A stretch of DNA of 64,000 nucleotides from an uncultured delta proteobacterium (GCA_963704865.1 CAVPIE010000002.1:654989-718988); one strand, 5' to 3'; counted from the first letter of the stretch, positions 6,116 through 52,016 are shown. The notes: generated by a model not told the origin, from the sequence alone. Program-made: numbers and translations.

Positions 6116-6137
6116 CGGGACCTCCTATGCCCAGTAG

Positions 6138-28912: not shown

Positions 28913-28998
28913 CTCAGGTCGTCCGCCCTCCCCTGAGGCGTTTTTCCATTGTCCTTTGTGGGCAGTGGCCTGGTCAAGGAAGGGATGCCATTGACACG

Positions 28999-31091: not shown

Positions 31092-31113
31092 GCGATCGGC
31101 GTCGCTCCCGCCT

Positions 31114-32367: not shown

Positions 32368-32372
32368 CTCGC

Positions 32373-32801: not shown

Positions 32802-32914
32802 GGCGGGTCCGACGATAGGGTCGAAACGCCATGAAACCAGACGAATCCAACGACGTCCATACGCAATTGTTTAGCCAAAAAGGAGCCATGAGGAGTTGAG
32901 AAGCAGCAACCGGT

Positions 32915-32930
32915 TGGCGCAGCTCGAGCA
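32915..32930 (+). promoter_or_regulatory. candidate sigma-54 (-24/-12) promoter ahead of the flp/tad block
   Basis: TGGCGC-agctc-GAGCA keeps the GG-N10-GC spacing but has 1 mismatch at -24 and 2 at -12. Lies 86 nt upstream of the first Flp-like ATG. Weak match by eye. Confidence 0.35.
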
Positions 32931-33015
32931 GCCCACCCTCTGGTGGGCGACCTCTGGTCCCGACGAACGAGAGAGTTTCCACACAACATTCGCCACCCAC
33001 GTCCGATGTACGTGC

Positions 33016-33150
33016 ATGGTGTTCGCCGAGTACACGTTGCTCACAGGAATCGTCGTCCTAACGGCGGGCCTAGCCCTCTACGCCCTCGGCGTACCCCTGG
33101 TGCAGGCGTTCTACCTCACGAAGCTCTTTATCCTTTTACCGGTGCCCTGA
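33016..33150 (+). CDS. Flp-like small hydrophobic protein lacking a leader peptide
   Basis: 44 aa, MVFAEYTLLTGIVVLTAGLALYALG... The xxxxEY motif followed by a hydrophobic helix begins at residue 1. No Gly cleavage site, poor RBS. Confidence 0.4.
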   Translation: MVFAEYTLLTGIVVLTAGLALYALGVPLVQAFYLTKLFILLPVP

Positions 33151-33165
33151 GAGAGGAAGGCAGTC

Positions 33166-33351
33166 ATGAGAATCGAAGCGGGAAATGAGAAGACCTTGCT
33201 CGCCGACAAGCGAGGACTAACCACGGTCGAGTACATCATCGTGCTCGGTTTGATCGCCGTGGTCGGCATCGCGGCTTGGCAGCAATTTGGAGAAACCTTG
33301 ATCGGCGAGGTCGAAGCTGCCGACGGATACATCGCGGACGTCGTGCAGTAG
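33166..33351 (+). CDS. flp: Flp/Fap family prepilin
   Basis: 61 aa. Leader MRIEAGNEKTLLADKRG, then LTTVEYIIVLGLIAVVGIAA (canonical G/XXXXEY processing motif). GAGGAAGG RBS. Confidence 0.85.
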   Translation: MRIEAGNEKTLLADKRGLTTVEYIIVLGLIAVVGIAAWQQFGETLIGEVEAADGYIADVVQ

Positions 33352-33362
33352 CAGGCAGTGCG

Positions 33363-33908
33363 ATGAACACGGCGGTAACCATCGCTGCGGGTCTGGCTTT
33401 GTGCGTCGCGGCAACAGCGGCGTTCTGCGATTGGCGACGAGGCGAGATCCCCAATTGGCTGACGCTCCCCGCGCTTCTCCTCGCGCCATGGAGCTACGGC
33501 CTTGCGTTCGGCATCGAGTACGCCCTACATAGCCTCGCGGCTGGGTTCTTGGGCGGCCTGGTGCCGTACCTCATGTTTCGCCGTGGCGCGATGGGAGGCG
33601 GCGACGTCAAGCTCTTTGGCGCCCTAGGGGCGGTGATGGGCTTCGACCTGCTTCTCGGGGTCGAGATCCAGCTGGCGGCTTCCTTGGCGGCCTTGGTGTT
33701 CGCCAGTGCGGCGCTTGCCTGGAAAGGGGCATTGACCAGCACTCTGATGAACGCGCTTGCCGTGGGTTTCGGCCCTTTGCTTCCACAGCGATGGCGTCGC
33801 GAACCTTGCGACGAGCTGGCTGCGCAAGTTCGTATGGGAGCGCCGGTCTTCGTCGCGACGGGATTCTTCGCAACCCCACATCTCTTGCTCGCATGGGCCG
33901 CGCCGTGA
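33363..33908 (+). CDS. cpaA: A24-family prepilin peptidase (CpaA/TadV)
   Basis: 181 aa, multi-TM. First Asp in CDWRRGEIPNWL and second in GGGDVKLFGALG. Confidence 0.85.
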   Translation: MNTAVTIAAGLALCVAATAAFCDWRRGEIPNWLTLPALLLAPWSYGLAFGIEYALHSLAAGFLGGLVPYLMFRRGAMGGGDVKLFGALGAVMGFDLLLGVEIQLAASLAALVFASAALAWKGALTSTLMNALAVGFGPLLPQRWRREPCDELAAQVRMGAPVFVATGFFATPHLLLAWAAP

Positions 33909-33916
33909 CCGGAACT

Positions 33917-34696
33917 ATGTCAAATTCTGGTTCGCTGTTTACAGACAAACGCGGCGTCGTTTTTCTCGAGTTTCTCGTCTCATTCGTTCCCATGTGGACG
34001 TTCTTCTTGAGCGTTCTTCAGCTTGCGTTCATTTCCCACGCGAACCTGATGGTGAAGCACTCCGCCGACTCGGCAGCGAGGGCGGCCGTCGTCGTTTTGC
34101 CCGACGATCCAAACGAATACGGCGGCGAACCCGAGATGAGCCTGGACCGCAATGCCGTAACGGCATCCGATCTGGGTGTTGCACTCGGGCAAATCGGGTC
34201 GGCGGTGCGGGGTCGAGCAAGCGAAGCAGGCCTCTTGAAGGCCTTCTCCCAGAAGCCTTTGGCCAACCTCGGAAGGTCACGCCTCAACACGATTCGACTG
34301 GCCGCCCATACGCCGCTGATGCCGTTGGCGCCGATGAATGTAGGTCGCGATTCGCACCCCAGCATCGGTAAGGCCATCGGAAGCGAGAGGAAGCTCCTCA
34401 GCGCGCTCTACTATCAGCCGTTTGCGCTTGCGGTGACGTTTCCGGGCCTTCGGGGGGTCGTCGCGACGGAGCCGGAAATCACCGTGAGGGTCACGTACGC
34501 CTACCAATGCACCGTGCCGCTTGCCCGAAGTATTCTCTGTCAGTCGTTCGCAGACCTCGACGCCAAAGAAGAGCTCGGCGAAGCGTTCCTCCCGCTGGCC
34601 CAGAGTCTCGTCGGCGGTCGATTTCGGGGTCTACAGCACGACACCACGCTGCTGATCCAAGACGCGCCCTACGAGTATCACCCGAGGGGTTCCTGA
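33917..34696 (+). CDS. TadE-like pseudopilin
   Basis: N-terminus DKRG/VVFLEFLVSFVPMW (G/XXXXEF motif plus hydrophobic helix). 259 aa. Alternative ATG at 33893. Confidence 0.75.
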   Translation: MSNSGSLFTDKRGVVFLEFLVSFVPMWTFFLSVLQLAFISHANLMVKHSADSAARAAVVVLPDDPNEYGGEPEMSLDRNAVTASDLGVALGQIGSAVRGRASEAGLLKAFSQKPLANLGRSRLNTIRLAAHTPLMPLAPMNVGRDSHPSIGKAIGSERKLLSALYYQPFALAVTFPGLRGVVATEPEITVRVTYAYQCTVPLARSILCQSFADLDAKEELGEAFLPLAQSLVGGRFRGLQHDTTLLIQDAPYEYHPRGS

Positions 34697-35901
34697 TGCA
34701 CCCGAAGCAAGCAGGCCTAGTCGAGGACACGAAGGGTGCCATGATGCTCATGTCTCTATTCATGGCGCTCCTCCTCATCGGAGCTCTCTATTACATCCTC
34801 GGCGTAGGAGACGCTGTCATCTACCGGCGTATCATGCAGGACGGCGCCGATGCAGGCGCGCACGCAGCATCGGTGATGGGCGCCAAGGGGATGAACCTCC
34901 ATGTCTTGCTCAATGTCGTGATGGCCGTGACCACCGGCATTCTGCTGGTCATCCGCAGCGTCGAGGTTCTGCTCGAAATCGTAATCGGCATTCTCTACGG
35001 ACTCGTTGCGACGGTCGTGCTAGCGGCGAAAGCATCGGCACTCATTGCCGTGCTCAGTCCCGTCGAGAGCACGGTCGAGAGGGTTGGCGATGCCGTCGAG
35101 CAGTTTGTGCGAGCCGCCCACGACGCGTTGGATGTGGCGCACAAGGCCGTCCAGCATGGGTATCCCTTGTTGGCAGAAGCGCGCGCGGTCGATGCGATGG
35201 CCTTCCAGGCCGCGTATGATCCCCCGGTCGCCGGCGGTTTTGTCGTGCCGCTTCTCGGCTCGCGCCTTCCCAGCGGTGGTCGAGGGCTACCGATCGAAGA
35301 GGACGACATCGGCATCCTCTGTGATCGCGTCTCCGAAGGCCTGAGCAACAGGCTCAGCAACATGAGCTCAAAGGTGCCTCGATGGCTTCTCAAGTTCCTT
35401 GGTGGCGTCGTCGGGCAGGCACTCCGGCTGGGCAAACGAAGGACGTGCGCAGACGAAGTCGTCGAGCCTCCACGGCGCGTGATTGAGAACCGAGCCGATG
35501 GAACTCACGTATGGCTCGGGCACGAAGAGTTCCAATACCGTGCGTACGCGATCGGTCGAGACCCTCACGAAAATCACTGGCAGCATGGCGAGCGGGGCAT
35601 TCGCATTGCGCAAGGCGGCGCGGCGGACGGGCGCAATGCCGCGCACCAAGCGCATGTCGTAGGTCGCCTCGCCTTTGCACAGGCCGAGTACTACTTCGAT
35701 GGTACCGAGCACAAAGCTGAGTGGCTCTGGAAACAGCGGTGGCGCGCACGGCTTCGCAGGTTTCGAATCTCGCGCGACTGGATTCCGCGCGGGATTCTCA
35801 GCGCATGTTCGGGAGCGAGAGGGAGAGGTTCGCTCGACGGGCTGGCGGGCCTTTGTGACGTCGCGCGTGATTTCTCGATCAACGCGGTCTCCGCGCACTG
35901 A
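34696..35901 (+). CDS. TadG-like pilus-assembly protein
   Basis: 401 aa from an ATG overlapping the upstream stop (TGATG). N-terminus DTKGAMMLMSLFMALLLIGALYYILG and large size as in TadG-type proteins. Confidence 0.65.
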   Translation: MHPKQAGLVEDTKGAMMLMSLFMALLLIGALYYILGVGDAVIYRRIMQDGADAGAHAASVMGAKGMNLHVLLNVVMAVTTGILLVIRSVEVLLEIVIGILYGLVATVVLAAKASALIAVLSPVESTVERVGDAVEQFVRAAHDALDVAHKAVQHGYPLLAEARAVDAMAFQAAYDPPVAGGFVVPLLGSRLPSGGRGLPIEEDDIGILCDRVSEGLSNRLSNMSSKVPRWLLKFLGGVVGQALRLGKRRTCADEVVEPPRRVIENRADGTHVWLGHEEFQYRAYAIGRDPHENHWQHGERGIRIAQGGAADGRNAAHQAHVVGRLAFAQAEYYFDGTEHKAEWLWKQRWRARLRRFRISRDWIPRGILSACSGARGRGSLDGLAGLCDVARDFSINAVSAH

Positions 35902-35908
35902 GGACACG

Positions 35909-36442
35909 ATGACTGCATCAAACCGACAAGTGCTGACAGACGAAAGCGGAACGGCCATGCTCGAAGCGCTCATCAGTCTACCGGTATTCGCAGCGTCTCT
36001 GGTAGCCGTAGTCGCTCTCAATGGAATGTACGGAGCCAAGCTCGAGGCCAAGTCTCGTGCGAGGCGAATGGCCTGGCTGCAGGCCGACTCGGGCGAATGC
36101 CCTTCGCAAAGCTGTCGAAGCGGGGAGTGCGGGCGCATCGAAGGCGAAATTCGCGCTGGTGGTCTCGATGACTTGCTCACAGTGCACGACGGTCGCTTCA
36201 CCTTGGACTCCTTCCTCGGCAACCTCGGTCGTTTTTTTCTCGGCAAGGCGACGAATGGGGTCGGCCTGGCGAAGGCATTGACACCCACGATGCTGAGGCC
36301 GGAGATGGGTTCGCAACATGGGGTGACGACCCTGCTATGCAACACGACCTCCAGGAACGCCGAAGGAGTCGGCAACGTTCTCGAGCACGCCTGCCGCACA
36401 GGATTGCAAACGACGGAGTACGCGCGTGAAGTATGTAGATAG
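35909..36442 (+). CDS. TadE-like pseudopilin (second copy)
   Basis: 177 aa. DESG/TAMLEALISLPVFAASLVAVVAL (G/XXXXE motif plus hydrophobic helix). Confidence 0.7.
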   Translation: MTASNRQVLTDESGTAMLEALISLPVFAASLVAVVALNGMYGAKLEAKSRARRMAWLQADSGECPSQSCRSGECGRIEGEIRAGGLDDLLTVHDGRFTLDSFLGNLGRFFLGKATNGVGLAKALTPTMLRPEMGSQHGVTTLLCNTTSRNAEGVGNVLEHACRTGLQTTEYAREVCR

Positions 36443-37307
36443 GATCATGCCCTGGTTCCGGCTGGGACTGTTTCTGCACGTCCTCGTCGTGTTTGCTTCC
36501 GCGGTTCTCCTCCGTTCGGCCCATGCCGACGTTGCGCCGTTCTTTTCCGGCATCGTGGTAGAGACCATGAGCTACCCCGGCGCACCTCCGGAGCCCACCC
36601 GGGTTCTGCATTTGAACGGTGTCGGCGTTTCATTTCGCACGCAAACGGTGCCTGCCTCGCTCGACGAGGTTCTCCTTCACTATGAATCCCTATGCACTGG
36701 CGGGAATGCTGGGCTCGCCGAGCGGCTTTCGATGCAATCGGTCCGCAGCAAGGACGTTGGCCAAGTTGCTTGCCTCGACATGGGCGATACGCCCCGAAAC
36801 CTACGCTCGCTCGTCGATCGATTTCTTCGCTTTTCCGAGACCGGCGACTTGGGCGAGCTAGGGAGGCTTCGATACATGCGCGCTCGCGAACTGTCCGACA
36901 TGCCCGGCGGCCAAACGTTCGTTCTTACGGTCTGGGCGGACTCAGCCTTCAACCTCTTTCGAATGTTGCCGGCGGACGGCTCAGACGCAGCAGGCGGTGA
37001 CGTCGCAGCGGTGCCTCGGCCTCTAGGGTCGCAGCGCGTCTTGTCGGCATGGGAGGCAGGGTCACCCAGCGGGGTCGTCGTGTACCGGGTGCCCGACGAG
37101 TCGGCGGACGAGCTCGTATCGTTCTATCGACGCGAGCTATCGGCCAATGGCTGGACGATCATCGAGCGGCATCCTTCTCAGTCGATCGTGATCGACGATA
37201 TTCGAACGATCTCGGCGGAGCAGGGACACCGCACGGTCACGGTTCTCGCCCGGTCCACCCAAGCCTCCGCCAGCGTGCTCTCCATCCTAGTCTCTGAACC
37301 GTCATGA
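36426..37307 (+). CDS. hypothetical secreted protein inside the tad block
   Basis: Signal-peptide-like MKYVDRIMPWFRLGLFLHVLVVFASAVLLRSAHA. GGAG lies 7 nt before GTG 36426 (alternative ATG 36447). No motif recognised. Confidence 0.65.
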   Translation: MKYVDRIMPWFRLGLFLHVLVVFASAVLLRSAHADVAPFFSGIVVETMSYPGAPPEPTRVLHLNGVGVSFRTQTVPASLDEVLLHYESLCTGGNAGLAERLSMQSVRSKDVGQVACLDMGDTPRNLRSLVDRFLRFSETGDLGELGRLRYMRARELSDMPGGQTFVLTVWADSAFNLFRMLPADGSDAAGGDVAAVPRPLGSQRVLSAWEAGSPSGVVVYRVPDESADELVSFYRRELSANGWTIIERHPSQSIVIDDIRTISAEQGHRTVTVLARSTQASASVLSILVSEPS

Positions 37308-37323
37308 CCAAGGGCCACCGTCC

Positions 37324-38085
37324 ATGAATCGAACCGCTCTCCTCGCATCCGTCATCGTCGCTGCACTCGGCTTTGTGCTCCTCGGCGTCTACGTTCGGCA
37401 GTTCCAGCGAAACGCGACCGGGGGCGATCCGATTGCATTGCTCGCCATGAGCCAGGACGTCGCGGCAGGCGTGCCCCTGACCGAGCAGATGCTGCTCGTG
37501 CGGACCTTGCCCGAGAGCTATGTCGAAGAACGCCAAGTGCTCGCCAGCGCGCTTCCACGGGTCTTGGGCGTCCGCTCGTCCATTGACCTCGAGGCCAACC
37601 AAACGCTGCTTTGGACGGATCTGTCCGCGGCTCCAAGGGACCGGCGCTCGCTGTCGAGCCGTATTCCAAAAGGGATGCGAGCGATGAGCATTGCCGGAAC
37701 TGGAAGGCGACCGTTCGCCGACCTATTGCTCCCGGGCGATCGGGTCGACGTCTTGCTCACCAAAGCGAAGCGAGGCTCTGAGGCAACAGTCGTGACGGTT
37801 CCGCTGTTGCAGAACGTTCTGGTGCTTGCCGTCGGCGATCGCTTCGGCGCAGCGGACCCACAGAGCTCACCCCTTCGATCGGACTCTGTCACGCTGCTCC
37901 TCACTATCGACCAAGCCAGCCTGCTCGCGCAGGCACGACGCGATGCAACCTTGAATCTCGTCCTGCGCAACGAGAACGACCTCGAGATCAATGAGGGCCT
38001 TGCCGAGACCGATGATTCGGATGTCCTCGAGCAAGAGAAGCGGGCGCGTCGCCAACGGCGATTGCGGATCGAGAAGGTCGACTGA
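37324..38085 (+). CDS. cpaB: Flp pilus assembly protein CpaB/RcpC
   Basis: N-terminal TM. SAF-like segment IALLAMSQDVAAGVPLTEQML. Central GDRVDVLLT and LLQNVLVLAVG as in CpaB. Confidence 0.85.
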   Translation: MNRTALLASVIVAALGFVLLGVYVRQFQRNATGGDPIALLAMSQDVAAGVPLTEQMLLVRTLPESYVEERQVLASALPRVLGVRSSIDLEANQTLLWTDLSAAPRDRRSLSSRIPKGMRAMSIAGTGRRPFADLLLPGDRVDVLLTKAKRGSEATVVTVPLLQNVLVLAVGDRFGAADPQSSPLRSDSVTLLLTIDQASLLAQARRDATLNLVLRNENDLEINEGLAETDDSDVLEQEKRARRQRRLRIEKVD

Positions 38086-38086
38086 G

Positions 38087-39238
38087 GTGTCCTCTCTGAC
38101 GAAGAGGAGGGTTGTGGCAGCCGTCATGCTTCTCGCCAACGCGCTAGAGGCTGACGCCACGGCAGATCTGGAGGTCAACCGCCCGATCGTCGTGCGAGTC
38201 GGCGAGCAGAAGAGTCTCTCCGCGCGGGGCATCAAGAGCTACTCGGAGGGCGCACCTGGCTTCGCCGACATTCGCATTACGCGCGACCAAAGTCGCTTCG
38301 TGATCGTCGGCAAGGAAGAGGGGACGACTTCTCTACTCTTGATCAAGAATGACGGCAGCCAGCTCCAATACACCATTCGAGTGATTCTAGCGGACGCATC
38401 CAAGGGGTTCGGCAGCAGAGAGAATATCCGCTTGGATCTCTATTTCGTTTTGATCCAGGACCGCTACGGCCATCAGATTGGGCTCAATTGGCCAGGAAAC
38501 ATCGGAAGCACGATCGGTCCGTCGGAGGCCGCTATCGCGATCACAGGCGGCAGCGGGCAACCGACGCAGAGCGCTTTTCAGATACTGCCGCAGACGTTCT
38601 TGCCGAGCTTTGACCTCGCACAGGCCAAAGGTTGGGCGAAGTTGTACCGCCAAGCCACGCTGGTGACCGCCAACGGCACCGAGGCTGTTTTTACCTCTGG
38701 TGGAGAGTTCAACGTTCAAGTCCAGAACAACTTGACCGTGAACGTGCAGGCGATCGAGTTTGGAACGAAGGTGAGTGTTCTCCCAAAGTATGATTCGAAG
38801 ACTGGTCGAATCGAGCTCGAGATCGTTGCGGACGTGTCCGACCTGGATGCGGAAAAAGGGGCACAGGGGATTCCAGGACGAATCACCTCGCACGTTGAAA
38901 CCTTGGTCAATCTCGAGCTAGGCCAATCTGTTTCTTTGGCTGGAATTCGTGCGCGCACAGAGCGGCGGAGGAAGAAAGGAATCCCGGGGCTTGCTCTCGT
39001 TCCCTTCATCGGTGCGCTCTTTGGTACGCATTCTCGGGAGACGGAAGACGACCAATCGTACATGTTCGTGGTCCCTTCCGTCGTCGAGCCGGTGAGCGTG
39101 AGTCAAAGGGACCGCGTCGAAGAAGCGCTGCGCATATACGAGAGCTTCCGAGGTGACGTCGACGATCATCACCTCTTGGATCAACCGCGGGTTGGGCGTT
39201 CCATCGCTCCCAGGGCCGAAAGCGAGCGTAGTCGATGA
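38087..39238 (+). CDS. cpaC: secretin CpaC/RcpA
   Basis: GTG 2 nt after the cpaB stop. Secretin C-domain ...GIPGLALVPFIGALFGTHSRETEDDQSYMFVVPSVVEP. Confidence 0.85.
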   Translation: MSSLTKRRVVAAVMLLANALEADATADLEVNRPIVVRVGEQKSLSARGIKSYSEGAPGFADIRITRDQSRFVIVGKEEGTTSLLLIKNDGSQLQYTIRVILADASKGFGSRENIRLDLYFVLIQDRYGHQIGLNWPGNIGSTIGPSEAAIAITGGSGQPTQSAFQILPQTFLPSFDLAQAKGWAKLYRQATLVTANGTEAVFTSGGEFNVQVQNNLTVNVQAIEFGTKVSVLPKYDSKTGRIELEIVADVSDLDAEKGAQGIPGRITSHVETLVNLELGQSVSLAGIRARTERRRKKGIPGLALVPFIGALFGTHSRETEDDQSYMFVVPSVVEPVSVSQRDRVEEALRIYESFRGDVDDHHLLDQPRVGRSIAPRAESERSR

Positions 39239-40812
39239 GTCGCGGTTTCGCGGTCACCGTCCTCATGCCGGACGGCTCCAAGCAGGAGCTAGCCATCGCC
39301 GACACGACCTCGCTCACCGTGGGCCGCGACCCCGCTTGCCACATCGTTCTTCCGTCGCCGGCGGTCAGCCGAATCCACCTTCACATCGAACAGGGCCGCG
39401 GCGGCGCCCTGGTCGTCGATCGGTCTTCCAATGGCACCATCCTCGCCGGCGAGCGGCTTTCCGACGCCGAGACGCTCCTCACGCCAGGTGAAGCGCTTCG
39501 AGTCGGTCCCTACCTGCTTCAAATCTCGCCTCTTGTGGCGTGCAACGCTTCCGCATCTCCTGAGATCAGACGACGAATTCACCGGTCGCTCCTCGATCAC
39601 CTCGATCTTGCATCGCTGGAGGCGACCGACATGGATGCCGAGGTTCTGCGGCCGCGCGTCGTTCAGGCGCTCGAGCAGATTGTGTCGCGCTTCGAGACGG
39701 ACCTTTCTCCTTCCACAGATCTGCCCAAGCTCGTCTCGGAGATGACCGACGAGGTGCTTGGGCTCGGTCCACTTCAAGAGCTTCTGGACGATGATTCCGT
39801 TTCCGAAATCATGGTCGTCGATCCCAATACAATCTACGTCGAAAGACAGGGCACGATTCGCCTCACCCCTTTGCGTTTTACCGATGACGAATCGTGTCGC
39901 GCGGCGATCGAACGAATCGTGACGCCGTTAGGTCGTCGCATCGACGAAAGCACGCCCCTGGTTGACGCGCGCCTCGATGACGGCTCCCGAGTGAACGCGA
40001 TCATTCCGCCGCTCGCTATCCGAGGGCCGTGCATCACGATTCGCAAGTTCGCGAAACGACCGCTTCAAATGGACGAGCTGGTTCGGTTGGGAAGTCTGAG
40101 CTCGGCCATGGCGAGGTTCTTGCGGCGCTGCGTGCGCTCAAAAAAGAACTTGCTCATTGCGGGTGGCACCGGCAGCGGAAAGACGACCTTGCTCAATATC
40201 CTGTCTACCGAAATTCCAGCTGGCGAGCGAATCGTCACCATCGAAGACGCTGCGGAGCTTCGTCTGGATCAGCCGCATGTCGTTTCGCTTGAATCGAAAC
40301 CCCGAAATCTGGAGGGTTGTGGCGGGTACAGCATTCGGGACCTGGTGAAGAACGCTCTCCGAATGAGACCGGACCGAATCATCGTGGGTGAGTGCCGCGC
40401 CGGAGAAGCGATCGACATGCTGCAGGCGATGAACACCGGACACGAAGGTTCGATGACGACGACGCATGCGAACACCGCCACCGAAGCGCTCAAGCGCATC
40501 GAGACGCTCTGTATGATGGCGGGCCTCGACTTGTCTCCCCTCACGATCCGCGAACAGGTTTCCGGAAGTCTTCACGTCGTCGTTCAACAAACGAGATTCT
40601 CGGACGGCTCACGTCGTCTGACTTCGGTCACCGAAGTCGGGCAGCTAGGCGATGACGGCCAGCTCGTTCTCCACGATATTTTCGTCTTCCACCGAACCGG
40701 CACCAGTGCATCTGGTGAGGTCTTGGGCGAGCACCGAACGACGGGCTACGTTCCGAGCTTCTTAGACGAGTTCATCACGCAGGGGCTCATCGACGGTGGG
40801 GAGTTCTTGTGA
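39235..40812 (+). CDS. cpaF: FHA-domain-fused CpaF/TadA secretion ATPase
   Basis: N-terminal FHA (LTVGRDPACHIVLPSPAVSRIHLHIE...SSNGTIL). ATPase core LIAGGTGSGKTTLLN, IVTIEDAAEL, GHEGSMTTTHA. Confidence 0.9.
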   Translation: MSRGFAVTVLMPDGSKQELAIADTTSLTVGRDPACHIVLPSPAVSRIHLHIEQGRGGALVVDRSSNGTILAGERLSDAETLLTPGEALRVGPYLLQISPLVACNASASPEIRRRIHRSLLDHLDLASLEATDMDAEVLRPRVVQALEQIVSRFETDLSPSTDLPKLVSEMTDEVLGLGPLQELLDDDSVSEIMVVDPNTIYVERQGTIRLTPLRFTDDESCRAAIERIVTPLGRRIDESTPLVDARLDDGSRVNAIIPPLAIRGPCITIRKFAKRPLQMDELVRLGSLSSAMARFLRRCVRSKKNLLIAGGTGSGKTTLLNILSTEIPAGERIVTIEDAAELRLDQPHVVSLESKPRNLEGCGGYSIRDLVKNALRMRPDRIIVGECRAGEAIDMLQAMNTGHEGSMTTTHANTATEALKRIETLCMMAGLDLSPLTIREQVSGSLHVVVQQTRFSDGSRRLTSVTEVGQLGDDGQLVLHDIFVFHRTGTSASGEVLGEHRTTGYVPSFLDEFITQGLIDGGEFL

Positions 40813-41669
40813 AGCTCGAAGCCTTTCCTCTTCTGCTTTTATCCGCAGCGTTCCTCGTCGGCGGATGCGCAGTCATTTCGTATCTTCTGTTTTCCATCAA
40901 GGGAAACCTCGCCCAGCAGCAATGGCTACGCTACGCTGCTCGCCTCGATCGCCACTCGAGCTTTCTTCTACTGCCGTACCGAGGGTCGCAGATTGCCCTT
41001 GCGCAACTTCTCGCCAGCGCAGCGTTTGCTGGTCTGTTCGCGGTCAGCGGTAGCTCAGCGGTAGCTCTCGGTGCTCTGATTGCAGCCGCAGCGCCGCCTT
41101 TCGTCTTGTGGAAGCGGCACGTTGCGCGAGTCGCGCAACTCGAACGTCAGCTCGACACCTGGCTGCTGATGCTGGCCAACGCCCTCAAAGCGACGTCCTC
41201 GGTCGGAGAAGCCATTGCGTCTACCGTCCCCCTGGTACCCGAGCCGTTCAGCGTAGAGCTTGACCTATTGGTCAAAGAGATCCGGCTCGGCGCGCCGCTC
41301 GACCGCGCAATTGGCGCCCTCGCGCGACGAATCGACAGCACAGTGATTTCCGGAGCGTTCGCGACGATTGTGGTCGCCCGGCAGACTGGTGGCGACCTCT
41401 CTAGGACATTGGAGCACGCTTCGGCGGCGCTTCGTGAGTCCGCCAGGCTCGAAGGTGTCCTTCGGACCAAGACAGCCGAAGGCCGCGGGCAGGTTCTGGT
41501 CTTGGCGTCGGTGCCCTTCCTTCTCTGCGTCATGATCGCATGGCTCGACCGGTCCTGGTTCGATCCGATGCTGAACCAGCAGATCGGCCAGGCCATTCTC
41601 ACGGCCTGCGCCCTGGCGTGGACCTTTGCCACGGTTTGGGCCCATCACATCACGAAGGCCGACCTGTGA
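40809..41669 (+). CDS. tadB: TadB (type II secretion system F family) platform protein
   Basis: 286 aa. T2SSF-type segment LANALKATSSVGEAI...EIRLGAPLDRAIGALARR...RQTGGDLSRTL, flanked by TM helices. Confidence 0.85.
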   Translation: MKLEAFPLLLLSAAFLVGGCAVISYLLFSIKGNLAQQQWLRYAARLDRHSSFLLLPYRGSQIALAQLLASAAFAGLFAVSGSSAVALGALIAAAAPPFVLWKRHVARVAQLERQLDTWLLMLANALKATSSVGEAIASTVPLVPEPFSVELDLLVKEIRLGAPLDRAIGALARRIDSTVISGAFATIVVARQTGGDLSRTLEHASAALRESARLEGVLRTKTAEGRGQVLVLASVPFLLCVMIAWLDRSWFDPMLNQQIGQAILTACALAWTFATVWAHHITKADL

Positions 41670-42580
41670 TCGGCCGGCTCGATGTCGTTCTCGCCTTCGG
41701 TTTCGCCGCAGTTCTGGGAGGCGCGTCGGGTCTCACGTTCCAGCTCGCGAAGATGCCGTTGGCCAACCGGCCGACCTTGGGTGCCCGGGGTCTCAATCGA
41801 ACCAAGGTTCTGCGCAAGTGCGCTCTCTTCTCTTTTGTCGAGCCGGCGGTCCGCCTGCTGGCGGCCTGGCTGGCTCTGCTTCCAATGGAGCGAATTCGCG
41901 CGCACATCCGACGCTCGCTGACTCATGCCGGCGACTACCTCGGGCTTTCCGCTGATGAGTTGATCGCGCTTTGTTTTCTCTCGGGCCTAAGCTTCGGAGG
42001 CGGGACCTTGATTGCGTGTCAGCTTCTGGAGATATCTTGGCTGCTTCCGTTTGGGGCTCTGTGCATAGGGGCCTTCCTGCCTTGGGTTCGCGTGATGGGG
42101 GTCGCTCAACAAAGAGCAATACGCGTTGGCCGCGGGCTTCCAGCGTCGGTCGAGCTTGCGTCGATGTGCATGAGCGCGGGTCTGGACTTCCCAGGTTCAC
42201 TCCGACGCATCGTCCAGAGCGCCTCAAATCCGAGCGATCCCGTGATCGAGGAGTTTGCCAGGGTGCTGCAAGAGCTCGACCTCGGCCACACTCGGCGAAG
42301 CGCGATGGAAGGTTTCGCTGCCCGCATTCCAACCGACCAGGTCCGCGAATTCGTCAACAGCGTCGTCCAGGCCGAAGAGAAAGGAAGCCCCCTCGCAAGC
42401 GTTTTGACCATACAGGCACAGACGCAACGTCTACGGCGCAGTATCGCCGCCGAAGAAACCGCATCGGAGGCCGCGCTCATGCTCCTAGGTCCTATGACGT
42501 TGATCTTTCTGTGCGTGATCGTCCTGCTTCTCGGCCCGGTAGTTGTTCGCTTCATGACGGGAGGGCTTGGACCGGCATGA
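41666..42580 (+). CDS. tadC: TadC (type II secretion system F family) platform protein
   Basis: GTG overlaps the tadB stop. LASMCMSAGLDFPGSLRRI...ELDLGHTRRSAMEGFAAR...AEEKGSPLASVL plus terminal TM helices. Confidence 0.85.
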   Translation: MIGRLDVVLAFGFAAVLGGASGLTFQLAKMPLANRPTLGARGLNRTKVLRKCALFSFVEPAVRLLAAWLALLPMERIRAHIRRSLTHAGDYLGLSADELIALCFLSGLSFGGGTLIACQLLEISWLLPFGALCIGAFLPWVRVMGVAQQRAIRVGRGLPASVELASMCMSAGLDFPGSLRRIVQSASNPSDPVIEEFARVLQELDLGHTRRSAMEGFAARIPTDQVREFVNSVVQAEEKGSPLASVLTIQAQTQRLRRSIAAEETASEAALMLLGPMTLIFLCVIVLLLGPVVVRFMTGGLGPA

Positions 42581-43128
42581 CGGGCATCTCCCAAGTGCGG
42601 CGCTACGGCTTCGTCGCCTTGTTTGCAGCATGCGCGCTTCTGGCGCTCGCAGCGTGGCTCCGAGGCCGGGCGGCGCCCAGCCACAAACAGCAAGCTCTCC
42701 ATGACTATCCTGAGCTCTTCGTCGACGTCGCTGTCTGTCCGTCGCAAGGCGAGCCTCTCCCGAACGGTCGACGCTTGGAGGAGCTCGGCCTACTGCGCGC
42801 GGACCGCTATGCGTACGATGAAGGCGACGGCGTTCGAGCCGTGCAGCGCTACCGTGAAGCCCTGACTTGCTATCGAGCCGCTGGCTCGCAGCGCGATGCA
42901 GCGCGCGTGGGTCGTTTGCTCTCGGCGCTCTCCGCCCGAGTCAACACGGACTACGCGGCAGCGCGTTTGAATCTGGTCACGGCGCTCGAACAGAGTCGAT
43001 GGTCTGATGCGCTCAGCGAGATACATCGGCTACTTCTATTGACTGAGCACTTGAGGAGGCACGCGTATGTCGAATGGCTCAACGAGATCATCGGAAAGAT
43101 CGCCGCTCGGGCAAGCACGACGCCGTAG
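42577..43128 (+). CDS. hypothetical membrane-anchored helical protein in the tad block
   Basis: ATGA overlap with tadC. N-terminal TM YGFVALFAACALLALAAW, helical repeat-like remainder. 183 aa. Confidence 0.6.
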   Translation: MTGISQVRRYGFVALFAACALLALAAWLRGRAAPSHKQQALHDYPELFVDVAVCPSQGEPLPNGRRLEELGLLRADRYAYDEGDGVRAVQRYREALTCYRAAGSQRDAARVGRLLSALSARVNTDYAAARLNLVTALEQSRWSDALSEIHRLLLLTEHLRRHAYVEWLNEIIGKIAARASTTP

Positions 43129-43762
43129 CAAGGCACTCTGGCTCTTGCTCCCACCGTGCCTTGCGATGATCGGCGGCTGTCATCACGCAATGTTTCATCA
43201 AGGCTCCGAGCTCCAAGCTGAGCTCACCACCGTCACTTCGGAAGACCTTTTTTCCCTCGGCGTCTCCCATGCGCGTTCTGGGGACCTCCTACGCGCCGAG
43301 CAGTACCTGACCGCCGCGCGACAGCGAGGACACGACGAGGCATCCGCGATCTATTGGCTGGTGCGAGTCTGCGTAGCTGCAAGCCGCTATCAATCCGCGC
43401 TGCGCCACGCGGCCCAGTACCTTCGCGACCACCCCGCACATTGGCCACTTCGTCTCGTCGTGGCGACTATCCATGAAGCGCTCGGAGATCTGGTTCGTGC
43501 GGAGGCGGAGCTGGAGCAAATCGTGAGAGTGGCCCCCGATAGCCCGTTGCCTCACTACCGGCTGGCCATGCTGTATCGCCGCAGCGAAGACGACGGAGGT
43601 CGATCCAAAGCGCACCTCCAGGAGTACCTCAAACTTGTGCCTCGAGGCCCTCACGCGGCGGAAGCGCAGTCTATTCTCAGCGACGTTTCCGAAACCGAGA
43701 TGGGACCGCAGCGCATGCCCTATACCTTCGACGCGAGCCAAGAGGCGCAGGACGCGCCATGA
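43067..43762 (+). CDS. TPR-repeat lipoprotein (TadD-like role)
   Basis: Lipobox-like LAMIGGC. TPR-like repeats (LGVSHARSGDLLRAEQYL, IHEALGDLVRAEAEL, LAMLYRR). Start uncertain, since ATG 43067 overlaps the upstream gene by 62 nt. Confidence 0.7.
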   Translation: MSNGSTRSSERSPLGQARRRSKALWLLLPPCLAMIGGCHHAMFHQGSELQAELTTVTSEDLFSLGVSHARSGDLLRAEQYLTAARQRGHDEASAIYWLVRVCVAASRYQSALRHAAQYLRDHPAHWPLRLVVATIHEALGDLVRAEAELEQIVRVAPDSPLPHYRLAMLYRRSEDDGGRSKAHLQEYLKLVPRGPHAAEAQSILSDVSETEMGPQRMPYTFDASQEAQDAP

Positions 43763-44757
43763 GCATTCCTCGTCATGTCTTTGACCAAACCGTCGCGTCG
43801 CTATTCGCTCCAGTCATCCCCTTCTTGGAAGGCGATGTGGTCAGCGAAATCATGATCAATGGTCACGACCAGATCTACATCGAGAAACAGGGTCGACTCC
43901 ATCTCACAGGGAGCCGCTTTGCGTCAGAGCACGATTTGATGTCCGCGCTACGAAACCTCTCACAGTTCGTCGGGCGAGAGCTCAACTCGCAGCAACCCAT
44001 CCTAGAGGCGCGACTTCCTGACGGTTCGCGAGTCGAGGCAGTCATTCCGCCTGCCGCGCCCTCCGGCCCAGTGGTCAGCATCAGGCGCTTTCGCCGTCAG
44101 CAGTTGACCTTGGAACGCCTTGTCGAGCTGGGGGCAGTTCCCCGGGAGGCCTCGATTCTGCTTCGATCGGTCATCGAACGAAAGCACAACGTCATCATCG
44201 CGGGTGGCAGCGGATCTGGGAAAACGTCTTTGCTCAACGCGCTGGCATCGCTTGCTTCAAATGACGAGCGCGTCGTGGTCATCGAAGATTCTCAGGAGCT
44301 TCGGGTTCGGCTGCCTCACGTCGTGCAGTTGGAGTCGCAGCCGCCGGACATTCGCGGCCGCGGCTGCGTTACGATTCGCGACCTTCTCCGGGCCACTCTT
44401 CGCATGCGCCCCGACCGAATCGTGATCGGCGAAATACGCGGGGGCGAAGCGCTCGACCTGATTCAAGCGATGATCTCTGGCCATCGGGGTTGCCTCTCCA
44501 CGGTTCATGCCACGCTCCCCATCGATACGCTGAGCCGACTGGAAACGATGGCCCTGATGACCGACGTCGAGGTGCCGCTCGCCGTCCTCCGCGTTCAAAT
44601 CGCTTCGGCGGTGGACACGATCGTCCAAGTTTCACGTGGCTCCGACGGCTTGCGGCATGTGACCCATGTATCGCAAGTCCTCGGTCACGACCCAAATAGC
44701 GGCTATCGGCTCCATCACCTGTTCGAGCGGCCGCCAGACCTCGGAGGAGGCCAATGA
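43759..44757 (+). CDS. second CpaF/VirB11-type secretion ATPase (no FHA domain)
   Basis: 332 aa. IIAGGSGSGKTSLLN, VVVIEDSQEL, GHRGCLSTVHA. N-domain EIMINGHDQIYIEKQGRL. Confidence 0.9.
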   Translation: MSIPRHVFDQTVASLFAPVIPFLEGDVVSEIMINGHDQIYIEKQGRLHLTGSRFASEHDLMSALRNLSQFVGRELNSQQPILEARLPDGSRVEAVIPPAAPSGPVVSIRRFRRQQLTLERLVELGAVPREASILLRSVIERKHNVIIAGGSGSGKTSLLNALASLASNDERVVVIEDSQELRVRLPHVVQLESQPPDIRGRGCVTIRDLLRATLRMRPDRIVIGEIRGGEALDLIQAMISGHRGCLSTVHATLPIDTLSRLETMALMTDVEVPLAVLRVQIASAVDTIVQVSRGSDGLRHVTHVSQVLGHDPNSGYRLHHLFERPPDLGGGQ

Positions 44758-45380
44758 CGGAACCTCCAACTCTAATCCTTTGGGACGCGGACGAGGAGCG
44801 GACTTTGGTCGACCGCGCCCAGCTCTCCAGTCCCGAGCCAGCGTTTGCTGGGTCCGTTCATCCGGTCCCGGAGAACTCGCAAAGCGAGGACCGCGACCGC
44901 GCCAAGCGTGAAGCAAAGCAAACGCTGCGAGCCGGGCGCTCGCTGCTGTCGAGGTACAGGCGCGAGATCATGGAGGTCAGCGCGGCTCTCGCTGTCTTCG
45001 TTGGCCTCGGTTCGGTCGTCCGCCAACAATGGCTGATTACCGATGCCTTGCGTGAGACGCTCACCGAGGTTCGCGCTCCTCGCCAGGAAATCGGTAACGC
45101 CCGCTCTGACGCGCTTCCACGATCCCAAGAGCCCTTCACCCGAGAGGAGGTCGAGCGTCGCGCGCTCATCAAAGAGCTCTCGCCCGATGAGCGTGAGGCG
45201 CTGGAGCGGCAGGCCGCAGCCCTCATCGCATCGAATGACTTCCCGGCTGCACTGAGTCAGTACGAGACGCTTGCGGAGCTCTTTCCTGACGACCGGACGC
45301 TCCGCGACGTGGTCACCGTGCTCAAGGCCAAGCTCCGTTGCGACCCATCTGCCAGCTTCGCGCGGGGCGCATGTCGCTGA
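44754..45380 (+). CDS. hypothetical single-pass membrane protein in the tad block
   Basis: ATGA-type overlap with the upstream ATPase gene. Central TM VSAALAVFVGLGSVV, helical C-terminus. Confidence 0.6.
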   Translation: MTEPPTLILWDADEERTLVDRAQLSSPEPAFAGSVHPVPENSQSEDRDRAKREAKQTLRAGRSLLSRYRREIMEVSAALAVFVGLGSVVRQQWLITDALRETLTEVRAPRQEIGNARSDALPRSQEPFTREEVERRALIKELSPDEREALERQAAALIASNDFPAALSQYETLAELFPDDRTLRDVVTVLKAKLRCDPSASFARGACR

Positions 45381-46039
45381 TGCATCGTTGGACACTCATC
45401 GTTGGCGCTGCGGTGTCGGCGTCGTGTCAGGCGCCCACCGCTTCCGCGCCGACAGTCGACGTCGTCTTTGCGGTCGAATCAGATCCGGGCCTGCCGCTTC
45501 GCCAAGTCCATGTTTCTGTCGACGGTCAATCCGTGGGGGAGACGGATTCGAACGGTCTGGCGCGAGCAAGGGTCGACGGCAAGCCCGGGAAACGATTCAG
45601 AGTCGAGCACGATTGCCCGCATGGACATGTCGCCCCATCCGAGCCGAAATTTCTGAGGCTGCGCACCTTCGGCCGCGTCGGAGAGTCCCATTCGGGGGCA
45701 TTGAAGATCACGCTCAGATGCAAACCTGAGAAGCGGCTGGCTGTTTTCATCATTCGAGCAAAGCACGGTGCCGGCCTTCCCGTCCTTCTCAACGGGCAAA
45801 GTGTGGCTCAGATGAATCCTTCAGGCGTCGCGCAGTTCTCTGCCTCGGCCCGTCCGGGCACGGACTTCATCGTAGAGCTCGACACATCAAGTCGATCGCA
45901 GCTGAGCCCACAGCGCCCAACGCATTTGAGGACACTCCAGGACGCAGACGAGATCTTCGTCATCAACCAGTCGTTCGACCTTCGAAAATTGCCCCGGCGA
46001 CGGGGCCGACAGCGAATGAGAATCACCAAAATTGAGTAA
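45371..46039 (+). CDS. hypothetical lipoprotein, beta-rich
   Basis: Start at MSLMHRWTLIVGAAVSASC (lipobox-like). Repeated V..V.VDGQ/NGQS segments. Overlaps the upstream stop by 10 nt. Confidence 0.6.
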   Translation: MSLMHRWTLIVGAAVSASCQAPTASAPTVDVVFAVESDPGLPLRQVHVSVDGQSVGETDSNGLARARVDGKPGKRFRVEHDCPHGHVAPSEPKFLRLRTFGRVGESHSGALKITLRCKPEKRLAVFIIRAKHGAGLPVLLNGQSVAQMNPSGVAQFSASARPGTDFIVELDTSSRSQLSPQRPTHLRTLQDADEIFVINQSFDLRKLPRRRGRQRMRITKIE

Positions 46040-46068
46040 CCGCCCGGCCGCGTACTATAACCGTCGCG

Positions 46069-47415
46069 ATGGGTGATCGGGCGGACGTGGTCGTGATTGG
46101 AGCTGGGCTGTCGGGGCTTTGTGCAGCGCGCAAGCTTCGGGCTCAGGGGAAGTCCGTCTTCGTCCTCGAAGCGCGTGATCGTGTTGGCGGACGGACTCGG
46201 ACCGAACGGATTGGGCAAGGCGAATTTGACCTGGGTGGGCAGTGGATCGGTCCGGGGCAAGAGCGTGTGCACGCGCTTGCGAACGAGCTCGGCATTCAGA
46301 CCTTCCCGACGTACACCGAGGGCAAGAAGGTCTTGGAAGTCGAGGGGAAGGTGTCGACCTACAAGCGTTCGGTTGCCTCAATGTCGCTGCCCTCTCTGAT
46401 TCAGATGCAGGGGGCCCTCAGCTACCTCCACCGGGTGCAGAAGAAAATCTCGCCGACCGCGCCGATGAGCGCGGAAGGCGCCGAGGAGCTCGATGGCGAA
46501 ACGCTCGAGACCTGGCGGGCCCGGTTCGTGAAGTCGGGCAAGATCCTTGCGGTGATGGATGCCGCGATTCGCTCGATTTTTGGCGCCGAGGCGCGCGAGC
46601 TTTCGGCGCTCTACTTCCTGATGTACCTCAACGCTGGGGGCGGCTTGCTGAGCCACTCGGAGACCAGTGGCGGAGCACAGCAGGATCGCTTCGTCCCCGG
46701 GGCGCAGTCGATTTCAAACGCGCTCGCCAAGGAGCTCGGGGATGCGCTGATCCTCGGCGCACCCGTTCGCACGATCGTCCAGAACCAAGACGGCGTCGAG
46801 GCGCACTCCGACTCGAACTCGGTCGCTGCGCGCTTCGCTGTCGTCGCCGTGCCGCCGCCGCTCGCCGGGCGAATCGAATACCAGCCTTCGGTGTCCGTCG
46901 GCCGCGACCAAGTCACGCAGCGCTTTGCAATGGGCGCAGCGGTGAAGGTGCTCGTCACCTACGAACGCGCGTTCTGGCGCGAAGCAGGCTTCTCGGGCGA
47001 AGTGGTCAGCTCGGACGGGCCGCTGAGCGTCGTCTACGACAACACCTCGCATGACAGTCGGCAGCCTGCGCTGGTCGGCTTCGTCGTTGGAAGCCAAGCG
47101 CGGCAATGGTCTGCGCAACCTCTCTCCGATCGAAAGCGCCGCGTCGCCAATGCACTCTCGCGCTACTTCGGCGACGAAGCCAAATCGTTTCAGGAATACC
47201 ACGAGCTCGACTGGGGCGCGGAGCCCTGGTCTCGCGGGTGCCCGGTGGGTGGCTTACCGCCCGGGGTGCTCACCAAATCGTTCGCGCACCTTCGCAAGCC
47301 CGAAGGCCGAATCCACTGGGCCGGCACCGAGGCGGCCACCGAATGGATCGGCTACATGGAAGGCGCGATTCAGTCGGGTGAACGCGCGGCCGACGAAATC
47401 CTGCGCCGCCTGTAG
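46069..47415 (+). CDS. FAD-dependent amine oxidase (flavin monoamine oxidase family)
   Basis: DVVVIGAGLSGLCAARKL...VLEARDRVGGRT dinucleotide-binding motif. C-terminal WAGTEAATEWIGYMEGAIQSGERAA. Confidence 0.9.
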   Translation: MGDRADVVVIGAGLSGLCAARKLRAQGKSVFVLEARDRVGGRTRTERIGQGEFDLGGQWIGPGQERVHALANELGIQTFPTYTEGKKVLEVEGKVSTYKRSVASMSLPSLIQMQGALSYLHRVQKKISPTAPMSAEGAEELDGETLETWRARFVKSGKILAVMDAAIRSIFGAEARELSALYFLMYLNAGGGLLSHSETSGGAQQDRFVPGAQSISNALAKELGDALILGAPVRTIVQNQDGVEAHSDSNSVAARFAVVAVPPPLAGRIEYQPSVSVGRDQVTQRFAMGAAVKVLVTYERAFWREAGFSGEVVSSDGPLSVVYDNTSHDSRQPALVGFVVGSQARQWSAQPLSDRKRRVANALSRYFGDEAKSFQEYHELDWGAEPWSRGCPVGGLPPGVLTKSFAHLRKPEGRIHWAGTEAATEWIGYMEGAIQSGERAADEILRRL

Positions 47416-47421
47416 GGTTCC

Positions 47422-51929: not shown

Positions 51930-52016
51930 CGGCCGGACTCTAGGGCAATAGGGCATGGGGCCGCCACCCCCTCCGCTGGGCTTTGCGGCACCCGGGACTT
52001 GGCGTAGTACAGCCCT

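Follow-up and report, generated by a model that had tools for sequence, protein, structure and literature searches.

A contiguous Tad-type gene cluster with an FHA-CpaF ATPase and a second CpaF paralogue in an uncultured delta proteobacterium

We analysed a 64,000-nucleotide stretch of DNA from an uncultured delta proteobacterium (GCA_963704865.1 CAVPIE010000002.1:654989-718988), here called the window, and within it a cluster of Tad-type genes at positions 33016-46039. ORF listing, translation and Pfam and NCBIfam scans reveal 17 reading frames in series (g1 to g17), all on the plus strand, in agreement with an original prediction, made from the sequence alone, of 17 genes that run in one direction, are separated by no more than 16 nucleotides (nt) and often overlap by 4 nt. 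We read the cluster as one complete Tad (type IVc, Flp) machine belonging to the FHA-CpaF lineage that includes the Kil prey-killing system of Myxococcus xanthus, in the version found in the myxobacterial class Polyangia, to which the uncultured source is assigned, and give this reading a probability of about 0.7 as an explanation of the whole locus. That the genes encode a Tad-type machine is nearly certain, and their placement in the 'Kil-like' lineage is highly probable. For comparison, one genome per species was scanned with the FHA-CpaF protein, and the gene content of the related loci (labelled L) was established by tblastn of the 17 products.

Organisation and components of the cluster

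Gaps between non-overlapping genes measure 15 nt (g1/g2), 11 nt (g2/g3), 8 nt (g3/g4), 7 nt (g5/g6), 16 nt (g7/g8) and 1 nt (g8/g9); six junctions overlap by 4 nt (g9/g10, g10/g11, g11/g12, g12/g13, g14/g15 and g15/g16), two by 1 nt (g4/g5 and g16/g17) and one, g13/g14, by 62 nt, with the start of g14 at 43067 and relatives arranged alike. The start of g7 is probably the GTG at 36426, which yields a protein of 293 amino acids (aa) and a 17-nt overlap with g6, since 293 aa is the commonest length among the 57 g7 homologues. The G+C content of the cluster is 61.4%, as against 63.9% for the remainder of the window, and at third codon positions (GC3) it is about 0.64-0.72, compared with about 0.75-0.85 in many flanking genes.

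A scan of positions 32000-47500 returned zero sigma-70 promoter sites and fewer terminator-like hairpins than shuffled sequence, so that no internal terminator is supported; with Rfam at its gathering thresholds nothing in the entire window was matched, which leaves no known riboswitch or leader upstream of flp. Alignment of five upstream regions does contain a candidate promoter, the motif (G)CAAC-N15-CCGAT (32980-33015, plus strand), which provides the sole invariant columns of the alignment and ends 8 nt before the g1 start. There is no clear Shine-Dalgarno sequence before g1 in the window, and the motif could be an alternative-sigma promoter that gives rise to a leaderless or very short-leader mRNA.

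A conserved envelope protein, the conduit, the primary motor and the platform are encoded by g7 to g12. The first of these (36426-37307) specifies a conserved envelope protein with an N-terminal anchor or signal helix; its AlphaFold2 model (mean pLDDT 83.7) places two alpha/beta domains behind this long helix, and a Foldseek comparison of the model with the PDB gave nothing below E 0.01, with weak DcrB/PsbP-like matches. Most g7 homologues carry the precomputed family PF27226, and in almost every related locus the gene stands after the minor pilins and before cpaB. (Both PF27226 and PF27713, or UCP018868, the latter assigned to both ATPase families of the cluster, are precomputed annotations that our local Pfam copy did not report.) It is followed by g8 (37324-38085), a CpaB/RcpC protein by Pfam RcpC (E 1.8e-22) and by TIGR03177 (E 5.7e-35, over its cut-off), and by g9 (38087-39238), a short secretin of 383 aa (Pfam Secretin E 3.4e-27, T2SS-T3SS_pil_N E 6.2e-7) in which Pfam detects no N0 or BON domain and whose closest PDB relative is RcpA (8ODN, E 8e-21). 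The primary motor ATPase is FHA-CpaF, encoded by g10 (39235-40812; T2SSE E 3e-61, FHA E 2.1e-12): its FHA domain occupies N-terminal residues 28-91, residues G30, R31, S45, R46, H48, S64, N66, G67 and T68 of that domain are invariant in seven orthologues, the catalytic boxes are intact and the C-terminal motif is complete. The platform proteins g11 (TadB/CpaG/KilG, 40809-41669; T2SSF E 3.2e-10) and g12 (TadC/CpaH/KilH, 41666-42580; T2SSF E 1.5e-16) can be aligned with the KilG and KilH segments, respectively, of a published supermatrix.

Genes for pilins, minor pilins and the peptidase (g1 to g6) precede these. The candidate major pilin, g2 (33166-33351), is a Flp prepilin with the cleavage motif KRG/LTTVEY; it is 67-88% identical in L001-L005, and its match to Pfam Flp_Fap (E 2.9e-5) falls under the curated cut-off. 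Next comes g3 (33363-33908; Peptidase_A24 E 2.5e-17), a CpaA/TadV-type A24 prepilin peptidase of 181 aa that consists of the peptidase domain alone, with no further domain. At the head of the cluster, g1 (33016-33150), recognised by sequence register and conservation, encodes a leaderless Flp-like pilin of 44 aa (MVFAEY...) for which neither Pfam nor NCBIfam gave a match. Its start codon, ATG or GTG, directly precedes VFAEY, with E5 and Y6 in the register of mature Flp, and in-frame stops two to three codons upstream of the start in L001 and L004 rule out a leader peptide. Length and stop position are identical in five relatives, and 14 of the 15 pairwise comparisons show more synonymous than nonsynonymous codon differences (15:1 for L001 and L002, 11:3 for the window and L004), an excess that indicates purifying selection on the reading frame. 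Such a leaderless, pilin-like protein would have no need of the peptidase, and by analogy with the Flp adapters KilK and KilO g1 could be a minor or adapter pilin.

Three further genes have prepilin-type N-termini. The product of g4 (33917-34696; motif G/VVFLEF) is a TadE-like minor pilin that matches Pfam TadE at E 4.9e-4, with 20.6 bits against a cut-off of 22.9. That of g5 (34696-35901), a large TadG/KilN-like minor pilin candidate of 401 aa, has a prepilin-like N-terminus (G/AMMLM) without Glu at +5, a hydrophobic N-terminal helix and one long hydrophobic region, and is kept at the same position across loci at 24-88% identity. The third, g6 (35909-36442; motif G/TAMLEA), appears TadE/TadF-like: the gene at the same position in L018 matches TadE (E 0.0022). 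These N-termini suggest a counterpart of the TadE/F/G or KilL/M/N 'tip' trio; in Kil, the KilL/M/N trio is accompanied by an Flp adapter pilin (Herrou et al. 2025), and the block here holds three minor pilin candidates (g4-g6) together with a second small Flp-like protein, g1. The gene order and labels first assigned to the cluster hold, with Pfam or NCBIfam profiles matching g2, g3, g4, g8-g12, g14 and g15; its labels of two Flp-like proteins and of TadG- and TadE-like proteins are less secure, as g1, g5 and g6 of the window have no Pfam match and the TadE match of g4 is below cut-off.

Beyond the platform genes, four accessory proteins surround the second ATPase, g15. The small protein g13 (42577-43128), with an N-terminal signal or anchor (one hydrophobic segment) and a helical domain, has no Pfam or NCBIfam family match; it follows tadC in 15 related loci at 27-69% identity and has no match in L016. 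A TPR lipoprotein is encoded by g14 (43067-43762; lipobox MIGG|C; Pfam TPR_19 E 2.3e-10 and others), with partial weak matches to PilW (TIGR02521, E 2e-6) and BamD; against PDB sequences its matches are to generic TPR proteins and nothing more specific. It is conserved directly 5' of the second ATPase gene and lies after tadC, with g13 between, near the classical place of tadD. L009 (14400-17400) and L010 carry an insert of about 3.3 kb that separates the homologues of g13 and g14 and encodes a response-regulator receiver protein and a 326-aa protein, a hint that in this lineage the accessory module may be under two-component regulation.

The bitopic membrane protein g16 (44754-45380) has a short cytoplasmic N-terminus, a transmembrane segment at residues 71-89 and a C-terminal TPR-like hairpin that is kept in all loci. 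Proteins at this position in L008, L012, L014 and L018 are 486-640 aa long and combine the same C-terminal motif with an FHA-like N-terminal domain; this domain aligns end to end with the g10 FHA profile, and the only PDB matches to a profile of these relatives are FHA domains (E 0.03-0.2). The window g16 is a reduced copy that has lost the FHA-like domain, and the FHA-membrane-periplasm architecture of its relatives offers a lead in that it is reminiscent of MXAN_4649, a PrgH/YscD-like FHA protein from Kil cluster 2. The last gene, g17 (45380-46039), encodes a lipoprotein (SAS|C) with weak signals of beta-sandwich (Ig/Fn3-like) domains: the window protein itself has no match, five of 12 orthologues match Fn3_arc weakly (best E 4.7e-4), with Big_1 and MG4 in addition, and a profile of the family found no meaningful match in the PDB. 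A guess that g17 carries PEGA domains was dropped, as Pfam gave the weak Fn3/Ig-like matches instead. In Polyangiaceae loci a g17 homologue lies upstream of the cluster.

No TadZ/CpaE gene accompanies these components, as had been predicted. Family scans outside the block covered about 55 ORFs of at least 70 aa chosen by coding signal within the 64-kb window; Pfam found no TadZ/CpaE match in the block or among these ORFs, NCBIfam found none in the block, and the ParA/MinD-type deviant Walker A motif KGGxGK[ST] occurs in no frame of the 64 kb. Myxobacterial-style signalling genes do occur in the window, namely one Ser/Thr kinase that bears a PEGA domain, one PilZ-PEGA protein and another Ser/Thr kinase (82-1410 and 12580-14652, plus strand; 27428-29041, minus strand), and they show no linkage to the cluster beyond the closest relatives.

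Conservation among relatives and the relation to Kil

The best matches to the FHA-CpaF protein all come from uncultured Myxococcota (Polyangiales, Polyangiaceae, Labilithrix, Kofleriaceae, Sandaracinaceae or 'Myxococcales'), the nearest being a Microflora Danica metagenome-assembled genome (MAG) at 89% identity; in the closed chromosome CP070713 (3.54 Mb) the identity is 79%. The full block of 17 genes is collinear in L001-L005, where FHA-CpaF is 58-89% identical, and most genes, including g7, g13, the TPR lipoprotein, the second ATPase and usually g17, remain collinear in L008-L019 at 25-60% identity. An arrangement kept in five relatives and largely kept in some ten more distant ones is not due to chance, and the extra genes are co-conserved with the core over deep divergence. 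The synteny comparison across myxobacteria that the original prediction had called for thus speaks for its picture of one contiguous cluster with extra parts, and on this sequence evidence the block is the Polyangia version of an FHA-CpaF machine. Its downstream edge is marked by genes for an amine oxidase, a molybdopterin oxidoreductase and FdhD (46069-50600), because their order is kept in L001-L004 and lost in more distant loci; the amine oxidase gene (46069-47415) begins 29 nt after g17 and is unrelated to the machine.

Kil-like systems are already known from Myxococcota, some Polyangiales among them: they were found in Myxococcales, Bdellovibrionales and Bradymonadales (PMC8460266, Seef et al. 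2021), and Kil-like genes have been reported in four Polyangiales genera (PMC10196010). In M. xanthus, KilF is an FHA-ATPase fusion and several other Kil-cluster proteins carry FHA domains (PMC8460266), so the statement in the original prediction that Kil components carry such domains was correct. KilC is a short secretin without N0, for which a BON domain is reported (PMC8460266). The M. xanthus system (MXAN_3102-3108, MXAN_4648-4661; PMC8460266, PMC12075869) shares with the cluster described here the FHA-fused ATPase, the N0-less short secretin, CpaB, two platform proteins, the A24 peptidase, and an Flp pilin with a TadE/F/G-like tip trio; its accessory proteins combine FHA and TPR domains, and no CpaE homologue is listed. 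It differs in layout, being split into two clusters with the major pilin elsewhere and four tip clusters, whereas the present machine is encoded at one locus, and in its complement of motors and FHA proteins: Kil is described with a single ATPase and many FHA proteins (PMC8460266), including KilD, MXAN_3104, 4648 and 4649, while the cluster here has two ATPases and one clear FHA protein.

The systems of Bradymonadales (Bradymonas sediminis DN745_00680-00700 and Lujinxingia litoralis) have the same order of cpaB, secretin, FHA-CpaF, tadB and tadC, followed by TPR accessory genes, with the FHA domain fused to the ATPase as here and no TadZ in the loci examined. They lack a second ATPase and, by BLAST, homologues of g7, g13, g16 and g17; the TPR protein there measures about 430 aa, and the secretin, at 459-475 aa, is longer than g9. 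Lujinxingia has a separate FHA protein of 444 aa after tadC, whose 456-aa Bradymonas counterpart has no recorded FHA match, and in both the genes for pilin, peptidase and minor pilins are not adjacent to the core, unlike the present arrangement in which all stand together. Classical Tad/Cpa systems (Aggregatibacter flp-tad-rcp, Caulobacter cpa) follow the same logic, flp-flp-tadV ... rcpC-rcpA ... tadA-tadB-tadC-tadD with tadE/F/G-type minor pilins, and among solved structures it is their RcpA and CpaF that lie nearest to g9 and to the two ATPases. By comparison, the cluster here lacks TadZ/CpaE and RcpB/CpaD, places the minor pilins before rcpC, carries FHA on its ATPase and adds a second ATPase where the classical systems have one bifunctional enzyme (PMC6920026, PMC11300603); it is also phylogenetically remote from alpha-proteobacterial Cpa.

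For phylogeny, the KilF, KilH and KilG parts of the published supermatrix (23 taxa) were combined with the window and 18 loci, and neighbour-joining trees were computed with 100 bootstraps. A tree of just the ATPase places Bradymonadales as the sister of the primary ATPase clade (77) and Bdellovibrio-and-like organisms after them (68), with weak deep nodes (bootstrap 21-77), and identity over the ATPase core (Bradymonadales 58%, B. gladioli 57%, M. xanthus 54%, Caulobacter 49%) discriminates poorly; for these reasons a concatenated three-protein set of 695 columns was built. In the resulting tree the Polyangia sequences form a clade (bootstrap 100) whose sister is Bradymonadales (bootstrap 100), with two Bradymonadales control loci at their expected places; these two are joined first by a group of Myxococcus/Stigmatella and the Tad systems of beta/gamma-proteobacteria (83) and then by the Bdellovibrio-and-like organisms (100), and Desulfovibrio-type systems and Caulobacter/Agrobacterium fall outside (100). 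By this tree, the locus shares a major clade with every published Kil-like system, the Bradymonadales one being nearest; its core genes do not group with the classical alpha-proteobacterial Cpa/Tad systems, a clustering with ordinary adhesive Tad pili being what would have spoken against the original prediction.

The second ATPase and the surroundings of the cluster

The second ATPase whose presence had been predicted, here ATPase2, is encoded by g15 (43759-44757), a CpaF paralogue of 332 aa (T2SSE E 4.5e-55) that is 41% identical to residues 163-483 of g10. Its top PDB match is Caulobacter CpaF (8RKD/9E24, E 6e-80) over CpaF residues 148-443, with VirB11 at 1e-33, and it scores far better against the TadA family (E 3e-81) than against TIGR01420 pilT_fam (E 1.5e-11). 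As judged from these alignments, ATPase2 is reduced to the N2 and C-terminal ATPase domains, without FHA and without the N1 region. None of the 12 orthologues inspected has a damaged Walker A, Asp box, Walker B or His box, and the strict conservation of these motifs across about 40% sequence divergence argues that ATP hydrolysis has probably been retained. By neighbour-joining, the ATPase2 family forms a separate, long-branched clade (bootstrap 100) outside the primary-ATPase clade, which makes it an old paralogue and no recent copy.

All 16 of the Myxococcota loci whose sequence runs on for at least 3.9 kb downstream of FHA-CpaF encode ATPase2; in the three loci without it the sequence ends within about 2 kb, and L020, the sole non-myxobacterial FHA-CpaF locus, lacks it. 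The matches of an ATPase2 homology search were all close relatives (at least 68% identity) from metagenomes, and an exhaustive search of 1.8 billion cluster representatives gave two short clusters above 50% identity (67% and 58%), followed by generic CpaF. As far as the evidence goes, the second motor was added in loci of the Polyangia type, Myxococcus having been compared through its published description alone.

Tad pili have been described with one bifunctional ATPase (PMC6920026, PMC11300603, PMC12019362), and a 2026 preprint proposes that CpaF flips (motor inversion), retraction needing CpaF's C-terminal face with R387, the beta13-beta14 turn and the C-terminal motif (10.64898/2026.02.24.707734). 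We therefore looked at these positions in both ATPases. The residue equivalent to R387 is Arg in single-motor Caulobacter, Agrobacterium, Myxococcus, Bdellovibrio, Burkholderia and Stenotrophomonas. Among the primary ATPases of Polyangia it varies: the window lineage has T, A, G or K and the other loci A, K, P, I or R, Arg not being kept in several Polyangiaceae either. The ATPase2 proteins of Polyangiaceae and related loci have Lys or Arg at this place, and that of L005 has Ser; those of Polyangiaceae (364-381 aa) also possess the complete C-terminal motif. These patterns would fit relaxed constraint on bidirectionality once a second motor is at hand, and they do not identify which motor performs which step.

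Two-motor type IVa and IVb pili (PilB/PilT) likewise pair a long ATPase with N-terminal domains with a short one (about 330-370 aa, no N1) on a single platform. ATPase2 is a CpaF paralogue and not a member of the PilT family, so the likeness to PilB/PilT would be one of mechanism.

Several genes around the cluster were also characterised. Directly 5' of flp in L001 and L003 lies an L,D-transpeptidase gene (YkuD, E 3e-22; about 31108-32367, plus strand), which was considered as a part of the machine and set aside as a neighbour because it is conserved in close relatives only. Long ORFs at 30790-32367 (plus strand) and 29655-31466 (minus strand) overlap antisense here, and conservation in L001 and L003 indicates that the real genes are shorter and divergent, at about 31108-32367 (plus) and 29655 to about 31124 (minus). 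Between the L,D-transpeptidase gene and g1, the window and L004 have an SRPBCC/polyketide-cyclase-like gene (32373-32801, minus strand) that was undetected in L001 and L003 and so has the look of a short insertion, specific to the lineage, at the cluster's head. Further downstream are a full-length homologue of ERG4/ERG24-family sterol reductases (50664-51956, minus strand; Pfam E 4e-123), the portion of which within L001, L003 and L004 is 85-92% identical, and a Ras-family small GTPase (52017-52532, plus strand; Ras E 2e-24, Roc E 4e-18). Sterol biosynthesis is known in Myxococcota, which fits the former, and eukaryote-like Ras-family signalling proteins are typical of myxobacteria. Elsewhere in the window, a PspA/IM30-like gene (minus strand) divergent from a sigma-54 activator (plus strand) at 5480-7760 resembles a phage-shock-type envelope stress unit, and a RecD-like helicase (567 aa) adjoining a 1449-aa UvrD/PD-(D/E)XK helicase-nuclease at 57507-63549 (minus strand) probably serves AddAB/RecBCD-type repair.

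Mode of action, alternatives and significance

Taken as one Tad machine of the Kil-like lineage, the cluster would work as follows. The FHA domain of g10, with its phosphothreonine-binding residues kept, probably replaces TadZ in recruiting or licensing the motor through Ser/Thr-kinase signalling. A tip complex of g4-g6 would prime the pilus, with g1 as a minor or adapter pilin needing no peptidase, and passage across the envelope would be through CpaB and the secretin, for which the TPR lipoprotein g14 would serve as a TadD-like pilotin. The conserved add-on module g13-g17 would be centred on ATPase2 and, with the rest of the genes, probably forms a single functional unit. ATPase2 itself would be a second, exchangeable motor on the same TadB/TadC platform, comparable to the division of labour between PilB and PilT, and linked to the envelope by the bitopic g16; we rank this arrangement best because there is no second platform, secretin or pilin set and because ATPase2 is translationally coupled to the tad genes. 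ATPase2 would then drive a separate step, for which retraction is the leading, and speculative, candidate; as an assignment, retraction is doubtful. The broader idea of a two-motor Tad system in Polyangia, in which an N1-less CpaF paralogue runs one direction or step (retraction, or tip or effector loading) and FHA-CpaF the other, while a leaderless Flp bypasses the peptidase, is slightly better placed and still conjectural. The likeliest biological role, suggested by the analogy to M. xanthus Kil, would be predation through contact-dependent interaction with other cells; it is plausible and tentative, and carries somewhat less than even odds.

A number of observations weigh against parts of this reading. 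Our tree is a neighbour-joining tree on three proteins, in comparison with the published maximum likelihood tree on four (KilB being left out here), and in it M. xanthus Kil groups with the Tad systems of beta/gamma-proteobacteria (bootstrap 80), so that the locus is Kil-like in a broad sense and orthology with M. xanthus Kil is undemonstrated. The 'Kil-like' systems likewise form no demonstrated clean predator-only clade, as they appear unseparated from beta/gamma-proteobacterial Tad in this tree. Prey killing has been demonstrated by experiment for M. xanthus Kil only. No FHA protein besides g10 was found in the block or among the scanned window ORFs; the FHA-like assignment in the g16 relatives is marginal (E 5.5e-4 and probability 30% by hhalign with the FHA profile of g10); the nearest Ser/Thr kinase (27428-29041) was rejected as the FHA partner, its linkage being confined to the closest relatives; and g14 is a candidate TadD-like secretin pilotin by position and architecture only. 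In ATPase2 of the window lineage and its closest relatives, the residue at the R387 position is Ile, and the C-terminal motif is missing from the window-lineage proteins (330-335 aa), patterns that argue against a simple retraction role by the CpaF mechanism in this genome; the single-ATPase systems of Bradymonas and Lujinxingia also have Thr at the R387 position, which leaves the R387 argument weak. The original suggestion of a Kil-type or otherwise repurposed Tad machine therefore stands in part, favoured by the FHA-ATPase, the lack of TadZ and the Bradymonadales sister group and disfavoured by the separate position of M. xanthus, the two ATPases and the single FHA protein.

The foremost alternative is an ordinary adhesive or surface-sensing Tad pilus, serving attachment, aggregation or biofilm formation, in which FHA and the extra genes would provide regulation peculiar to the lineage and unconnected with predation. 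The locus has every core Tad part, and the wider clade also takes in Tad systems from Burkholderia, Stenotrophomonas and Achromobacter, beside which M. xanthus is nested; L020, from a non-myxobacterial MAG with FHA-CpaF, groups with Achromobacter and Thauera, and the range of ATPase core identities, 58% to 49%, barely separates the candidates. We nevertheless think this account unlikely, in view of the sister relationship to the Bradymonadales system at bootstrap 100, the failure to find TadZ, the short secretin, the fusion of FHA to the ATPase as in KilF and a host phylum of predators, none of which proves function.

It is improbable that g13-g17 are a separate device standing beside the Tad genes, in which ATPase2 powers, for example, effector export or a lipoprotein-associated envelope process. 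Such a device could account for the deep clade of ATPase2, its VirB11/TrbB-like size and good scores against VirB11/TrbB families, the module's own set of envelope proteins (g13, g14, g16 and g17), the interruption between g13 and g14 by the insert with a response regulator in L009 and L010, and the position of g17 at the other cluster end in Polyangiaceae. The genes from tadC through g16 are nevertheless joined by 4-nt overlaps, bar the 62 nt of g13/g14, ATPase2 has no second T2SSF platform gene, secretin or pilin set beside it and never occurs apart from the Tad core in the 16 loci examined, and its closest solved relative is CpaF and not VirB11, by E values of 6e-80 against 1e-33. Least likely is that ATPase2 is a regulatory or structural paralogue and no independent motor, either entering mixed hexamers together with FHA-CpaF or capping the platform. 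This would suit the absence of N1 and, in the window lineage, of the C-terminal motif, both of them CpaF surfaces that are variable or in contact with the platform; the strictly conserved catalytic boxes and the full C-terminal motif of Polyangiaceae ATPase2 speak against it.

In the literature searched, the invariable second CpaF paralogue with its module, the leaderless Flp and the single-locus organisation appear to be undescribed. How a single Tad ATPase performs both extension and retraction is an active question (Ellison 2019, two CpaF cryo-EM papers of 2024 and 2025, and the 2026 preprint), and the Tad/Kil-like loci of Polyangia, with their stripped-down second CpaF, provide a natural comparison for it. 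A two-motor Tad system, if true, would break the rule of one bifunctional ATPase, and variation of the C-terminal motif in ATPase2 and of the R387 position in the primary ATPases makes the idea testable. As a compact Kil-like machine encoded at a single locus, the cluster also allows shared accessory parts to be told from lineage-specific ones. Were it used in predation, Kil-type killing would extend to the abundant uncultured Polyangia of soil and sediment.

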